A stretch of DNA of 64,000 nucleotides from Candidatus Woesearchaeota archaeon (GTDB lineage: Archaea > Nanobdellota > Nanobdellia > Woesearchaeales > ARS49), in assembly GCA_016188265.1 (NCBI GenBank), contig JACPID010000001.1, positions 1,674 to 65,673 of the forward strand. The letters are read 5' to 3'. Under the pieces are notes generated by a model that saw nothing but the letters and a program-made list of their open reading frames with translations, had not been told where the DNA came from and did no database searches. Of the stretch, positions 5,072-49,238 are shown piece by piece; within the stretch, counting starts at the first letter, position 1, and every line of letters starts with the position of its first letter. Both the position numbers and the translations under genes were made by a program.

Positions 5072-5193
5072 ATAATATATAAATCTTTTGTTTAAAAACC
5101 AGAAAAACTCACCATATCTTTAGCGAGTTGTAAATTTGCAAATCTCTTGTGTTTCTTTGAGTAAATAGCTTTTCTATAAATATTTAGAGAGAA

Positions 5194-5934
5194 TTATTCT
5201 TTTGCTGTTTGCCATAATATGTTGAAGTAGGATTTGAATGACGCGCTTATTTCTTTGCTTTGTATTAGTATTGCAAATGGTCTGTCTCCTGCTAACCATA
5301 AGAGTAGAACCGTTTTATTTCCATAAATATATATAGTCATAGGGCTTTCATGTGTTTTAGGAAGATATTTTACTTCTGTTAAAGAATAAGTCTTAAATTC
5401 TTCACCTAGTTTGACTCCTTCTCCTGTTTGGTTAATGAGTGTTTTAAGTTTTATTTTGTTTTTTATTCTTTCTTTATGAAATCTCTGAATAAAAAATAAT
5501 GGTAAGATCTGTCTACTTTTTCCTGTGGTTCCTATGGCAAACCAATCTTTTCTGGTTCTTAGAATATCATTAAGAATTGTTTTCATTCCTTCTTTATCTT
5601 CATAAACTTCAACAAATGGCTTTGAGAATGCTATTTGATGAAACGCTTTAAGATTAGGTAAAATGCTTAATATAGAATGTTCTTTTTCTTTTAAGTAATC
5701 TAAAATCTTTTCAGGAGGTGCTGCATGAAAAAATTTAATATTATTTTTGACAACATAAGAAACCAATCCGCGGCTTATGAGACTTCTTAATGTATCGTAT
5801 AGGTGTGTTCTGGATTCATTTGTTTTCTTTGCTATATCCGCTACAGTTGCTTCTTGGAGCTGTAATAGTGCTAAATATGCGTCGGCCTCTCTGTTTGATA
5901 GTCCAATTCTTATTAATTGATCTTTCTCGCTCAT
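5194..5934 (-). CDS. TrmB-family HTH transcriptional regulator (paralog 1)
   Basis: N-terminal TrmB wHTH: LSNREADAYLALLQLQEATVADIAKKTNESRTHLYDTLRSLISRGLV. Confidence 0.7.
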   Translation of the reverse strand: MSEKDQLIRIGLSNREADAYLALLQLQEATVADIAKKTNESRTHLYDTLRSLISRGLVSYVVKNNIKFFHAAPPEKILDYLKEKEHSILSILPNLKAFHQIAFSKPFVEVYEDKEGMKTILNDILRTRKDWFAIGTTGKSRQILPLFFIQRFHKERIKNKIKLKTLINQTGEGVKLGEEFKTYSLTEVKYLPKTHESPMTIYIYGNKTVLLLWLAGDRPFAILIQSKEISASFKSYFNILWQTAKE

Positions 5935-22505: not shown

Positions 22506-22621
22506 AATCCAGTAGGATGTTTCTGGATTTATAAGTTTTTCCAGAATTAACAGTAAGCTTTTTAAACAAAATAGTGTTCAAAACATTAATGAAGCAGTGC
22601 ATGTCTTGCAGGAAGAGTATA

Positions 22622-22753
22622 ATGAATGATCGGGGAAGTGTATTTTTTAAATGCCCTAAGTGCTTAAAGGAAGATATTGTTCGTTGTTCTTCGTGCAGAA
22701 AAAATGCTGTGAAATTTACCTGTCCTCAATGTGAATTTACAGGCCCAAATTAA
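22622..22753 (+). CDS. small Zn-ribbon protein (43 aa), upstream of aEF-1beta
   Basis: MNDRGSVFFKCPKCLKEDIVRCSSCRKNAVKFTCPQCEFTGPN has four CxxC pairs. Below the ORF-track size cutoff. Confidence 0.5.
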   Translation: MNDRGSVFFKCPKCLKEDIVRCSSCRKNAVKFTCPQCEFTGPN

Positions 22754-40133: not shown

Positions 40134-40472
40134 TTAATTTTTTTCTTTAATCGCCCACTTCATTAAAGGGATGGTTGCTTTTCTTAAGCTAACTCCTTTC
40201 TTTGTTAAAGAATATTCAACTCTTAGGGGTGTTTCTGCATAAACTGTTCTTTTGATTAAATTCATTTTTTCAAGTTCTTTAAGCCTGTCTGTTAATGTTT
40301 TTGGATTTATCTTTATTTTTGAAAGTAAATTATTAAATCTTAATTTCTTAAAATTTCCTATAGTTACAAGTATAGATAAAGTCCACTTCCGGCTTAACAC
40401 CTCTGCAGCGCCTTCTAAAGGACACGGACAATAACCTTCACCAACCATCTCACAGCTTTCATTACTTACCAT
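40134..40472 (-). CDS. HxlR-family wHTH transcriptional regulator
   Basis: CPLEGAAEVLSRKWTLSILVTIGN...LTDRLKELEKMNLIKRTVYAETPLRVEYSLTKKG. Confidence 0.75.
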   Translation of the reverse strand: MVSNESCEMVGEGYCPCPLEGAAEVLSRKWTLSILVTIGNFKKLRFNNLLSKIKINPKTLTDRLKELEKMNLIKRTVYAETPLRVEYSLTKKGVSLRKATIPLMKWAIKEKN

Positions 40473-40556
40473 TTTACCACTTACACATTTATATACCAGT
40501 ATTACTTTACTTCAGAAAGTAACTATACTATTTAAATCTATCGAGGTGAAAATAAA

Positions 40557-40679
40557 ATGGTTGAAAAGAAAGAAAATTGTTGTGCTGGAGGAATTTGTCC
40601 TTGCTGCTCGTGTTGTATTTGTGTATGTACAAAAACATTAAAACCAGAAGCTCGAAAATTATTAAAAGAACTATTGTAA
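40557..40679 (+). CDS. Cys-rich 40-aa peptide
   Basis: MVEKKENCCAGGICPCCSCCICVCTKTLKPEARKLLKELL has 10 Cys in 17 residues (positions 8-24). Below the ORF-track cutoff. Confidence 0.4.
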   Translation: MVEKKENCCAGGICPCCSCCICVCTKTLKPEARKLLKELL

Positions 40680-40700
40680 TTAGAATGTGGCGGATGGGTA

Positions 40701-41189
40701 ATGAAAAGAGTATTTGGTGCAATAAAACTAACATTAACTTCTAAGAAGCATTTAGCAATAGTCATGCTTTCTTCACTTATTATAATTTCTTTAGCTGTTT
40801 TTATTCCTGTATTTACTATTCCCGGCAATAGTTTAAGTTTTCAGCTTTCGTTATTGACTTGGGATAGTCTCGCGTTAACTATTTTATTTTCATTACTTTT
40901 TGGACTTTCAATTGCAATGCACATTTATGCTTCTTCATTAAACAAAAAAGTTGCGATAGGAAAAAAAGCAGGCACTAGTTTTGTTGGTTTTATTGCAACA
41001 TTATTTTCAGCAAAGCTGTGTCCTGTTTGTCTAATAACTCTCTTTAGTATACTTGGTATTGGAGGTTCTATACCCTTATTTTTATTCTCACACAGAACTA
41101 CAATATTAATTACAAGTTTAATTTTACTTTTAGCCTCTATATCTTTAGCTAGTAGAAGTATTTTTGTGTGTAAGCAGTGTGTTAGGTGA
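40701..41189 (+). CDS. membrane protein with intramembrane CPVC motif
   Basis: Several TM helices; LFSAKLCPVCLITLF; C-terminal CKQCVR. Confidence 0.45.
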   Translation: MKRVFGAIKLTLTSKKHLAIVMLSSLIIISLAVFIPVFTIPGNSLSFQLSLLTWDSLALTILFSLLFGLSIAMHIYASSLNKKVAIGKKAGTSFVGFIATLFSAKLCPVCLITLFSILGIGGSIPLFLFSHRTTILITSLILLLASISLASRSIFVCKQCVR

Positions 41190-41374
41190 TAAAAATAGAA
41201 AGCACTCTAACCTGTCCTGAATGTGGGGGTAAACAGAAAAAGAAAATTCCTGTAAATATATGCGTGCAAGTCTACAGGTGCAGTAATTGTAATAAACTGG
41301 TTTCAAGAAAAAAAGGATGCTGCGTATTTTGTGATTATGGAGACAAAAAGTGCCCTTCAGCTAAACAACATTAA
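41186..41374 (+). CDS. Cys-rich Zn-ribbon protein
   Basis: CPECGG...CSNCN...CCVFCDYGDKKC. ATGA overlap with the upstream gene. Confidence 0.45.
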   Translation: MIKIESTLTCPECGGKQKKKIPVNICVQVYRCSNCNKLVSRKKGCCVFCDYGDKKCPSAKQH

Positions 41375-41978: not shown

Positions 41979-43382
41979 ATGGATGCTATACAACTTAAAG
42001 AAATAATAAGTCATGAGGAAAATCAAGAAGTTGAATTTAAGCAGTCTTTTCACAGTGCTCAAGATGTAAGCAAAATTCTATGTGGACTTGCCAATACATT
42101 GGGAGGCATTTTGATACTTGGCGTTGATGATGCTGGTCAGATTATTGGTTTGCATGAGAATTTGGACAAGCTTCAACAGAACATTTCTGCAGCAAATCAA
42201 TCAATTTCTCCTGTGCCGTTGATTAATGTAGAAATGCACAAGGTAGAAGAAAAAGACCTTGTTGCTGTTATTGTACAGAAAGCACCAGACAACTCATATC
42301 ATACATTCCAAGGGGCAATTTATGTAAGAATCGGAAGCACAACAAAGAGAATTGAAGGCAACACGCATTTAGAGTTTCTTAGAAATCGGCAAATCCTCTC
42401 ATTTGATGAATCATACGAGCTTTCCTGTAAAGTTGAAGACTTGGATATAGAAAAAATCAAGAGATACCTCAAAATAAGAAAGCAAGAGAATTATCTTGAT
42501 GAACATTCAGTTGAGGATTTTCTCATAAGTTCAAAAATAGCAACTCAGAATGGCCAGTTTAAGATAAAGAATCCAGCTGTACTTCTATTTGCTAAGGATC
42601 CTATAAAATTCCATCCTCAAATTGAACTAAAACTTGTTCAGTTCTCGGGCATTGAACCCGTCAATATTGTTGCACATAAACTTGTCCAGGAAGATTTGAT
42701 GGATGCTATTGAACAGGCAATTTCTTTTGTCGAAAAATATTTGAGTAAAGGAATCGAGATAAAATCCAAAGCTCGACGAGACGAAATTTATGAATATCCG
42801 CTAAATGTTATAAGAGAAGCAATTGTCAATGCAGTTGCCCACAGAGATTACTTCAGTAAAGATGCCATTCAGATTTATTTATTCGATGACAGAATAGAGA
42901 TCACCAATCCAGGATCGCTTCCGCACAATCTTCCAAGAGAACTCTTCGGGACAATATCTGTACAAAGAAATCCCATCACATATCGTTTTCTCAGAGACTT
43001 AGGTTATGTTGAAGGCTTGGGAACAGGCATTCCAAGAATGAAAAATGCTATGCGACAGGCTGGTTTGAATGATCCAGATTTCAAATTTACAGAGAGCTTT
43101 TTCAGAGTTGTTTTGTTTAATGCTAAAGGCAAGAAAAAGCCAATTGACAGTATTAAAGATTTGAATGACAGACAAAAAAAGGCACTGGAGTATTTGAAGA
43201 AACATAAATCGCTCAAGACTCAAACTTATTCAGAAATCAATAATGTTTCTCGTGCAACTGCAGTCAATGAGATTAATGAGATGATCCAGTACAAATACAT
43301 CAAAAAAGTAGGTGCTTTCAGAGGAGCGTATTACGTTCTTGAAGATGGAACTGCAGAACAATTGGAACAGGAGAAAAAATGA
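41979..43382 (+). CDS. AlbA_2 (Schlafen-like) plus HATPase_c_4 domain protein, putative ATP-dependent transcriptional regulator
   Basis: N-terminal AlbA_2-like block NQEVEFKQSF...LCGLANTLGGILILGVDD. C-terminal EAIVNAVAHRDY...IEITNPGSLP is an HATPase-like motif, followed by a wHTH. Noticeably higher GC and different codon usage than neighbours. Confidence 0.55.
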   Translation: MDAIQLKEIISHEENQEVEFKQSFHSAQDVSKILCGLANTLGGILILGVDDAGQIIGLHENLDKLQQNISAANQSISPVPLINVEMHKVEEKDLVAVIVQKAPDNSYHTFQGAIYVRIGSTTKRIEGNTHLEFLRNRQILSFDESYELSCKVEDLDIEKIKRYLKIRKQENYLDEHSVEDFLISSKIATQNGQFKIKNPAVLLFAKDPIKFHPQIELKLVQFSGIEPVNIVAHKLVQEDLMDAIEQAISFVEKYLSKGIEIKSKARRDEIYEYPLNVIREAIVNAVAHRDYFSKDAIQIYLFDDRIEITNPGSLPHNLPRELFGTISVQRNPITYRFLRDLGYVEGLGTGIPRMKNAMRQAGLNDPDFKFTESFFRVVLFNAKGKKKPIDSIKDLNDRQKKALEYLKKHKSLKTQTYSEINNVSRATAVNEINEMIQYKYIKKVGAFRGAYYVLEDGTAEQLEQEKK

Positions 43383-48649: not shown

Positions 48650-49102
48650 TCATTTTTTCCCAAAATAAAAGAATTTTTCTATGCTTACTTCTTCTAATTT
48701 TACTGTATTTTGTGGTGGCAGAGGTATAGGCTCTTTTTGTGGCGGTGTTGAGTTTTGCTGCTTTTGTTGCTGGCTTGTTTGTTGTTGAGGGCTTTGCTCT
48801 GTTTTTTGAGAATATTGTAGTTTTGCAACATTTTGTTGAAGCATACTTACTTGGTCTTGAAGCAAAGAAATTTTTTCACTTAGTTGAGAAAATTCATTTT
48901 TAAACTGTTTTGTACTCATATCTAGTAAAACCTGCATTTTTTTTTCTAAAAAGGCTGTATTTGATTGTGTTTCTTGATGTACATTTGTATTTTGTTCTCT
49001 TTCAACTATTGTTTGTTTGGCAACATTAAGAGCTGGATTTTCTCTCATTCTTTTTGTCAGCTCATTTAATTCTTTTATTTTATTTAAATCCATTTCACAC
49101 AC
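48650..49102 (-). CDS. Gln-rich coiled-coil protein
   Basis: Q-rich low complexity plus heptads. Confidence 0.35.
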   Translation of the reverse strand: MCEMDLNKIKELNELTKRMRENPALNVAKQTIVEREQNTNVHQETQSNTAFLEKKMQVLLDMSTKQFKNEFSQLSEKISLLQDQVSMLQQNVAKLQYSQKTEQSPQQQTSQQQKQQNSTPPQKEPIPLPPQNTVKLEEVSIEKFFYFGKK

Positions 49103-49238
49103 CTAGAGATTTTACACACTTATCACAATAGTATTTTTTTCCTTGTTGTTTAGCTATGCAAAGTTGGCATAACATTTTGCCGCACCACATACAGCTTCCA
49201 ATACTTTCTTTTTTGTGATCTATACAGGGGGATGTCAT
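49095..49238 (-). CDS. small double Zn-ribbon protein (47 aa)
   Basis: By-eye translation MTSPCIDHKKESIGSCMWCGKMLCQLCIAKQQGKKYYCDKCVKSLGV. Below the ORF-track cutoff. Confidence 0.4.
   Translation of the reverse strand: MTSPCIDHKKESIGSCMWCGKMLCQLCIAKQQGKKYYCDKCVKSLGV

Follow-up and report, generated by a model that had tools for sequence, protein, structure and literature searches.

Within a 64,000-nucleotide stretch of contig JACPID010000001.1 from a Candidatus Woesearchaeota archaeon (the window), we analysed a compact locus headed by a gene for a 40-residue, Cys-rich peptide. This gene is followed by one for a membrane protein, which we call TM162, and one for a 62-residue Cys-rich protein; it diverges from a gene for an HxlR-family regulator, beyond which a MerT-like membrane protein is encoded (Table 1). 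A first-pass annotation made from the DNA letters had placed the regulator, peptide, membrane protein and 62-residue protein genes correctly, and its assignment of the regulator to HxlR is borne out by a Pfam score well above the cutoff of 20.8 bits. Several details needed adjustment: the peptide has 9 Cys (residues 8, 9, 14, 16, 17, 19, 20, 22 and 24) rather than 10, the intervals separating its gene from those of the regulator and TM162 are each one nucleotide shorter than the 85 and 22 nt given, and the last gene is coupled through a GTG start, not through ATGA. The peptide had been missing from the list of open reading frames (ORFs), which is consistent with its lack of an NCBI entry; its exact sequence is recorded solely in a Logan assembly.

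Table 1. Features of the peptide locus and their positions in the window.
Feature	Position	Strand	Remarks
MerT-like membrane protein, 131 aa	39708..40103	-	Immediately 3' of the HxlR gene, same strand; unnoticed in the first-pass annotation
HxlR-family winged-helix regulator, 112 aa	40134..40472	-	Divergent from the peptide gene; Pfam HxlR (PF01638) 75.6 bits
Inverted repeat TTACTTT-N7-AAAGTAA, candidate HxlR operator	40502..40522		Read from the sequence, in the 84-nt divergent intergenic region
Shine-Dalgarno sequence GAGGTGA	40543..40549	+	7 nt before the peptide ATG
Cys-rich peptide, 40 aa, 9 Cys, MVEKKENCCAGGICPCCSCCICVCTKTLKPEARKLLKELL	40557..40679	+	First gene of the operon
Membrane protein TM162, 162 aa	40701..41189	+	Starts 21 nt after the peptide gene
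GDCCVxC-family protein, 62 aa (CPEC…CSNC…GCCVFC…C)	41186..41374	+	GTG start overlaps the TM162 stop as GTGA

The 40-residue ORF is a genuine gene under purifying selection and not a chance reading frame. Searches with a profile of the first four orthologues to be identified yielded 29 protein clusters, 39–51 residues long, that are unnamed or annotated as hypothetical and originate from Nanoarchaeota or other DPANN archaea. When a single genome was scanned for each species, 37 peptide loci were located, and a separate metagenome scan added 6 more; the genomes belong to Woesearchaeota, Aenigmatarchaeota, Pacearchaeota, Iainarchaeum and Nanobdellati, together with metagenome-assembled genomes labelled 'uncultured (Methanosarcinales) archaeon'. 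We conclude that the gene is real because these tiny groundwater DPANN archaea supply 40 distinct orthologous nucleotide sequences (the set used for all conservation statistics), because these are preceded by Shine-Dalgarno sites, with GGAGGT or GAGGTGA lying 5–9 nt upstream of the ATG in almost all of them, and because substitutions are constrained and eight Cys are conserved. Pairwise differences at codon positions 1, 2 and 3 are 0.27, 0.19 and 0.56, the proportions of synonymous and nonsynonymous differences (pS and pN) are 0.84 and 0.21, and the median ratio of nonsynonymous to synonymous rates (dN/dS) is 0.13. Both the search across related genomes and the inspection of the ribosome-binding site suggested by the first-pass annotation thus favour the gene. 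The pair of observations that it named as fatal to its proposal, an ORF lacking in related genomes and a membrane protein whose homologues occur without it within a characterised family, is not what we found: the ORF is conserved and TM162 matches no named family.

The conserved Cys correspond to window residues 8, 9, 14, 17, 19, 20, 22 and 24, and conservation extends to a GG pair, one Pro, one Thr and the tail L-x-x-x-L-x-PEARKLL-x-x-x-L, giving the consensus M-x-K/R-K/R-x-P-CC-x-GG-V-CP-x-C-D-CCICIC-TK-x-LKK-x-L-x-PEARKLL-x-x-x-L. With 9 Cys among 40 residues and no Phe, Trp, Tyr or His, the peptide has the sequence traits of the metallothionein class: it is small, more than 20% of it is Cys arranged as CC, CxC and CxxC, it is free of aromatic residues, and it has no predicted metal-free fold. 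AlphaFold2 places only a C-terminal helix (residues 30–39) and leaves residues 1–29 without regular structure, as would be expected of a Cys-rich domain that folds around metal. Neither a signal peptide nor a hydrophobic segment is present in the sequence, which suggests that the peptide is cytoplasmic.

The family itself appears to be undescribed. At E ≤ 0.1 the window peptide matched nothing in Pfam or NCBIfam, metallothionein families included, and a literature search on the family found no paper. Comparison of the peptide profile with PDB sequences gave no significant match; the best (E=0.095) covered only the helical tail and an unrelated helical repeat. This alignment sets the tail (40632-40676, residues 26–40, K-x-L-K-x-x-L-x-PEARKLL) against the Helicobacter CagY/Cag7 repeat KECEKLLTPEARKLLEE, and we judged kinship with CagY to be a chance coincidence of helix-Pro-helix pattern.

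To describe the surroundings of the orthologues we used tblastn of reference proteins together with clustering of neighbouring ORFs; the latter came from a crude longest-ORF caller, and the false ORFs that it placed antisense to the peptide gene (family F3) were disregarded. A regulator gene adjoins the peptide gene in almost all loci (identified by L numbers below), and the peptide gene is almost always the first gene under this regulator. Most loci carry a divergent HxlR gene. In all 26 of the HxlR orthologues beside peptide genes in the clustered gene set the motif C-x-M-x3-4-GYCP-x2-LE is invariant, so that each of these proteins has two conserved thiols; in the window protein they are the N-terminal C7 and C15 (C-E-M-VGE-GYCP-CP-LE). 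In the remaining loci (L002, L013, L022, L033, L042, L047 and L056) the regulator is a co-directionally encoded ArsR/SmtB protein whose C-terminus bears a cluster of Cys, for example FCKYLCGC, and these ArsR proteins give sub-threshold matches to the persulfide/sulfite sensor BigR. The proposal that the peptide is under HxlR control therefore needs widening, with ArsR/SmtB as the likely regulator in other genomes.

A candidate operator can also be read from the DNA. The perfect inverted repeat TTACTTT-N7-AAAGTAA lies 54 nt before the window peptide ATG, and its core, TACTTT-N7-AAAGTA, has just three occurrences in 340 kb of loci, all of them 52–63 nt upstream of a peptide ATG. A second HxlR clade is accompanied by TAGTATA-N7-AAACTA at positions -38 to -41 in 13 loci. 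In the two loci where the HxlR and peptide genes lie apart (L041 and L045), this second repeat adjoins the HxlR gene, and in L045 it adjoins the peptide gene as well. These placements are good indirect evidence that HxlR binds this repeat as its operator and has the peptide gene as its target, which lends support to the HxlR control suggested at first pass. A literature search for HxlR proteins linked to mercury and to Cys-rich proteins found nothing.

TM162 is identical to the NCBI entry 'hypothetical protein HYV79_00300' and belongs to a large family. An exhaustive profile search gave 494 cluster representatives at E ≤ 1e-3, of which 283 also satisfy E ≤ 1e-10; the named members are all 'hypothetical', one of them from the bacterium Candidatus Roizmanbacteria of the candidate phyla radiation (CPR). 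The window protein had no Pfam or NCBIfam match at E ≤ 0.1, none of 30 diverse members matched a relevant Pfam family or any Mer model, and tblastn against 72,556 plasmids returned no match. The first-pass annotation could name no family that the arrangement matches, a statement that stands for the peptide and TM162 and fails for the 62-residue protein (see below). The intramembrane CPVC (C107-P-V-C110) and C-terminal CxxC (C157-K-Q-C160) that it recognised in TM162 are indeed present. Among the 30 diverse members, the intramembrane CxxC is invariant, an I-P-G-N / F-Q-L-S motif following helix 1 is conserved, and the C-terminal Cys pair is largely kept, its first Cys in at least 90%.

The predicted model from AlphaFold2 is an all-helical membrane protein that starts with a basic amphipathic helix (predicted local distance difference test score, pLDDT, 73.9). 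Lys plus Arg counts across the family are 5.9 at the N-terminus, 0.5, 2.9 and 1.0 in loops 1, 2 and 3, and 3.9 at the C-terminus, a distribution that supports a predicted topology with both termini inside and four helices. The CxxC would then lie mid-way in an uncharged hydrophobic segment of 36 residues and the second CxxC on a cytoplasmic, Lys/Arg-rich tail. We rejected a five-helix alternative, in which both Cys pairs are extracellular, because the C-terminal tail is rich in Lys and Arg family-wide. The predicted topology also differs from that of DsbB and VKOR, to which TM162 has no hidden Markov model (HMM) match and in which both pairs lie outside. As to whether the membrane protein is MerT-like in structure, a question raised at first pass, no Mer model matched and a Foldseek search of the PDB with the TM162 model returned only generic helical bundles (best E 0.15).

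Of the 37 loci with room downstream, about 23 (about 60%) have a TM162-family gene after the peptide gene, the median gap being 14.5 nt. The idea that the two form one unit thus holds for these loci and fails for the many in which the peptide occurs without the membrane protein. Downstream of the peptide gene in L028, the TM162-family gene (5136-5408) encodes a 90-residue fragment, which may reflect a pseudogene or an assembly or frameshift error. In L004, L036 and L048 a MerA gene immediately precedes a TM162 homologue. With one Cys pair in the membrane, a second predicted in the cytoplasm, and mer genes adjacent, TM162 has the features that define the functional class of Mer-type thiol-relay importers, and it may belong to that class.

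Distant members of the TM162 family are found in the CPR as well as in DPANN archaea (L051, 3106-4546; L052; L054; and the Roizmanbacteria protein P0072). The wider or ancestral role of the family may be broader than mercury and thiol-related.

Several other genes connect the locus with mercury. The 62-residue protein, described at first pass as a Cys-rich zinc ribbon, is indeed small and rich in Cys, and NCBIfam assigns it to the GDCCVxC family (NF041374), with a score of 68.9 bits where the cutoff is 40 and an alignment over model positions 1–57 of 58; its motif reads K-G-CC-V-F-C. Homologues occur in 339 plasmid records by tblastn. Of these we inspected two contexts, merR-merT-merP-GDCCVxC on Pseudomonas pAMBL1 and arsR-merTP-GDCCVxC in Adhaeribacter; since TM162 is GTGA-coupled to the GDCCVxC gene, it holds the operon position that a Mer transporter holds on these plasmids. 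GDCCVxC proteins are encoded in the window and in L018, L037 and L061, and a literature search on the family found nothing. The 131-residue protein scores below the cutoff of Pfam MerT (PF02411; 25.5 bits against 32.9, E=1.5e-5) and matches NCBIfam MerT NF010314 with E=2.5e-7. It has the Cys-Cys pair in helix 1 (LCCFAPL) and a single Cys in the loop matching the position of the cytoplasmic pair, and it is 56% identical to a protein of L042 that passes the Pfam MerT cutoff (34.5 > 32.9). The gene order in L042 is ArsR, peptide, MerC, a CxxC protein (CxxC53) and MerT, the MerC also exceeding its Pfam cutoff (37.9 bits > 27.6).

A C-terminal Cys-Cys tail sets mercuric reductases apart from other disulfide reductases. 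In L014, L036, L038 and L048 the peptide gene has a MerA homologue no more than 5 kb away, and the L004 MerA passes the TIGR02053 MerA cutoff (468.2 > 454.45). The CVNVGC redox site is present in each of the four complete homologues (L004, L014, L036 and L038), and these four and the truncated copy of L048 all end in Cys-Cys-(V/T)-Glu. This check matters because some archaeal 'MerA' annotations are other reductases (PMC7278568). According to surveys of mer genes, several DPANN lineages have MerA (PMC8261052). In the MerA loci that we examined, MerP is absent and MerT, MerC or MerF can mostly not be recognised. Among the peptide loci, 3 encode a YHS-domain P-type ATPase.

Taken together, we consider it somewhat probable (a probability of roughly 55%) that the locus is a small operon for thiophilic, or soft, metals, with Hg(II) the best-supported substrate, in which the peptide buffers or chaperones metal and TM162 acts as a thiol-relay transporter. 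We favour this reading because the placement of a Cys-bearing repressor beside a Cys-rich peptide parallels smtB-smtA, and because the accessory genes tie the locus to mercury-type detoxification. The first-pass annotation had proposed a metal-binding or metal-export unit. Its metal-binding part fits the thiophilic-metal context provided by GDCCVxC and the MerT-like protein and, in orthologous loci, by MerA, MerC, MerT and the P-type ATPase; nothing indicates export. Its suggestion of a CPx-type carrier fits TM162 less well, the Cys layout and the adjacency to MerA and GDCCVxC being closer to Mer importers than to CPx-type ATPase carriers.

The analysis shows directly that the gene is real and conserved, to which families the proteins belong, and that the synteny and the Cys motifs are retained. 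From synteny and motif logic we infer the identity of the metal, the direction of transport, the regulation and the hand-off between the proteins as follows. The Cys-bearing HxlR repressor would sit on the inverted repeat of the divergent promoter and be freed once the pair of conserved thiols near its N-terminus becomes occupied or modified. Derepression would yield a three-gene transcript for the peptide, TM162 and the GDCCVxC protein. TM162 would move metal by ligand exchange from the mid-membrane CxxC to the cytoplasmic C-terminal CxxC, with the MerT-like and GDCCVxC proteins serving as accessory thiol ligands. The peptide would act as a cytoplasmic metallothionein-like polythiol that buffers or chaperones the metal, its core of eight Cys (as CC, CxxC and CxC) folding only around metal-thiolate clusters and being followed by the amphipathic C-terminal helix. 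In this capacity it may make up for two things missing from these reduced genomes, low-molecular-weight thiols and the N-terminal domain of MerA. In genomes with MerA the metal would then be reduced; in the window, which has no MerA, sequestration would be the end point.

A number of observations weigh against this soft-metal role, and some of them suit other functions. Neither the peptide nor TM162 shows detectable homology to metallothioneins or Mer transporters, and tblastn found no MerA homologue in the window. TM162 is missing beside about one third of the peptide genes, and some of its own genes, as in L004 and L011, stand without the peptide. The substrate could equally be Cu(I), Cd or Ag. 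HxlR-family regulators classically sense oxidants or electrophiles rather than metals. Thiol-redox proteins recur as neighbours, namely DsbD_TM/CcdA (at least 8 loci), glutaredoxin, TrxB-like and TlpA-like or redoxin proteins with a thioredoxin fold, and distant TM162 relatives adjoin not mer genes but a DsbA-like gene (L051) or DedA/VTT, or lie near rhodanese (L054). Such features would fit a module against thiol-disulfide, electrophile or sulfane-sulfur stress, with the peptide as a polythiol that is sacrificed or buffers redox state, or as a carrier of persulfide, TM162 as a membrane thiol oxidoreductase partnered by DsbD/CcdA, glutaredoxin and thioredoxin-fold proteins, and HxlR sensing oxidants or electrophiles through its Cys as HypR and YodB (HxlR/DUF24) do through an N-terminal Cys; the sub-threshold BigR matches of the ArsR proteins point the same way. 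We regard such a module, which corresponds to the second option of the first-pass annotation, as possible but unlikely. It does not account for MerA homologues with the Hg-specific C-terminal Cys-Cys, or for MerT, MerC, GDCCVxC and a P1B-type ATPase in the same loci. Vicinal CC and CxC motifs favour metal-thiolate clusters and are poor disulfide formers, the C-terminal CxxC of TM162 is predicted to be cytoplasmic, unlike the arrangement in DsbB or VKOR, and a mercury system would likewise be expected to have thiol-redox helpers nearby.

The tight coupling of the two genes, the conserved amphipathic helix of the peptide and the basic amphipathic helix at the N-terminus of TM162 would also be explained if the peptide were a cytoplasmic subunit that binds a cofactor, such as an Fe-S or other metal cluster, and docks by its C-terminal helix onto TM162 to form a small membrane redox enzyme. 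This is improbable, given how many peptide genes lack TM162, how frequently TM162 occurs alone in a family far outnumbering that of the peptide, and a CC/CxC spacing that matches no known Fe-S motif. We largely discard the notion that the peptide is a regulatory leader, that is, an upstream ORF whose product has no function and whose Cys codons tune the downstream genes. Its brevity, its leading place in the operon and its string of Cys codons would suit a leader; however, the conservation pattern argues strongly against it, since non-Cys residues (GG, P, T, L and PEARKLL) are kept, pN is far below pS, and many loci have no co-directional gene downstream. At the locus, an Rfam scan found no family, and a scan for sigma-70 promoters (with a model ill-suited to an archaeon) and terminators found nothing beyond shuffled expectation and no attenuator-like terminator. 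Just as remote, in our estimate, is a precursor of a ribosomally synthesized and post-translationally modified peptide of the SCIFF/ranthipeptide, thioamide or thiazole type. The size and Cys density do resemble SCIFF ('six cysteines in forty-five residues'), yet no NCBIfam or Pfam model, RiPP precursor models included, matches the peptide, its whole length is conserved with no split into leader and core, and no radical-SAM, cyclodehydratase or protease gene is among the recurrent neighbour families. The conservation pattern, together with the absence of maturase genes from those neighbours, led us to reject this candidate.

The orthologous loci share further genes. One encodes a Cys-rich micro-protein of about 50 residues with CxxC motifs, which recurs in about 15 loci beside the peptide and TM162 genes and is absent from the window. 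Its sequence (L008 3669-3833, plus strand; L002 3331-3489, minus strand) follows the pattern …KNYFxCxxCxF…C(E/K)xxC…H(N/H)SC(S/N)(L/I)EITK(H/Y)A…, with only a weak, sub-threshold match to Pfam DUF7128. Another is a membrane family of about 150 residues with the motif GGWQ(I/V)CHN(L/I)C, here called 'CHNxC' (L038 1389-1871, minus strand; also L020, L024, L030, L034, L037 and L041). It has no Pfam or NCBIfam match, is often convergent to the peptide gene, and may be another thiol-bearing membrane protein of the same islands. Finally, a membrane-anchored extracytoplasmic family of about 210–250 residues occurs in 11 loci (for example L030 4232-4918, plus strand, and L045 4159-4803, minus strand). 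It has His-rich motifs (HWHP…, IHTHD, HIHADW) and a Cys cluster, without a Pfam match, and may be an extracellular metal-binding protein.

In the window the locus lies in AT-rich DNA (about 30% GC in the window) and is flanked by genes of housekeeping type, for an RNase J-like protein, PCNA, tRNA-Leu and an AlbA_2/Schlafen ATPase. There is no GC shift across it; with such flanks and constant GC it is no obvious mobile island. The AlbA_2/Schlafen protein, encoded just 3' of the locus (41979-43382, plus strand), has 467 residues and combines this domain with a RecG-C-like HATPase_c_4 domain and a C-terminal helix-turn-helix; it is a type of ATP-dependent DNA-binding protein frequent in defence or transcription-factor roles and is seemingly unrelated to the locus. 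Other small Cys-rich ORFs in the window encode 47 residues (49095-49238, minus strand) and 59 residues (22574-22753, plus strand), with CxxC pairs of zinc-ribbon or B-box type.

A metal-resistance operon with a metallothionein-like protein is a kind of system that is already known. The peptide and TM162 would be two undescribed families within it, and the two-Cys HxlR clade an unusual regulator for such a system; literature searches on the peptide, TM162 and this clade returned nothing. To our knowledge no archaeal metallothionein has been characterised, and a literature search for metallothioneins in DPANN archaea found no papers. It is tempting, though still rather doubtful, to see in the peptide the first archaeal metallothionein-type family, present in DPANN, receiving Hg(II) or other soft metals from a hitherto unrecognised class of thiol-relay transporter represented by TM162 (at least 494 clusters across DPANN and CPR) under a metal-sensing clade of two-Cys HxlR regulators, and perhaps taking the place of low-molecular-weight thiols and of the MerA N-terminal domain. 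TM162 and the peptide are also concrete candidates for the proteins that would take up the metal and pass it on in DPANN MerA loci, where such components are otherwise missing. A family of 40–49 residues with eight Cys would offer a compact new metal-binding scaffold, with possible use in bioremediation and metal sensing, and TM162 is a large unannotated family common to both great groups of ultra-small episymbionts. The peptide gene is also short enough to be frequently omitted by annotation pipelines, and it illustrates how conserved micro-proteins are overlooked in candidate phyla.

Among characterised systems, the cyanobacterial metallothionein operon smtB-smtA, with its divergent ArsR/SmtB repressor, and the mycobacterial Cu(I) metallothionein MymT offer the closest parallels to the peptide. 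Each involves a tiny, cytoplasmic, aromatic-free, Cys-rich protein with CxC, CC and CxxC motifs. As in smtB-smtA, the peptide gene is the first or only gene under an adjacent, often divergent, thiol-bearing winged-helix repressor, and ArsR/SmtB itself is that regulator in at least 6 peptide loci. Unlike these proteins, the peptide resembles no metallothionein family in sequence (Pfam and PDB gave no match), is confined to DPANN archaea, has a conserved amphipathic C-terminal helix, and is usually paired with an HxlR regulator and coupled to a membrane protein; its likeness to metallothioneins is read from sequence.

The bacterial mer operon, merR-merT-merP-(merC/merF)-merA, and its Sulfolobus counterpart, merR-merH-merA-merI, share with our locus the order of a regulator first, then small membrane transporters with Cys pairs and a small soluble Cys-containing protein that binds metal, both functions being predicted ones in our locus. 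GDCCVxC and MerT-like proteins are common components, and MerA, MerC and MerT occur in orthologous loci. MerT, MerC and MerF use a layout of two Cys pairs, and TM162 shares the arrangement of one membrane and one cytoplasmic pair. In contrast, the window has no MerR-family regulator, MerP or MerA, TM162 has four predicted helices and no HMM-detectable homology to MerT, MerC, MerF or MerE, and the soluble partner would be a cytoplasmic eight-Cys peptide rather than the periplasmic HMA-fold MerP, the TRASH-domain MerH or the N-terminal domain of MerA. With HxlR (DUF24) regulators of the HypR and YodB type, the window regulator shares the Pfam family, the N-terminal 'CP' Cys and a divergent, putatively autoregulated promoter with an inverted-repeat operator. 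The clade linked to the peptide differs from them in a second invariant Cys eight residues upstream (C-x-M-x3-4-GYCP) and in its predicted targets, which are a Cys-rich peptide and a transporter instead of reductases.

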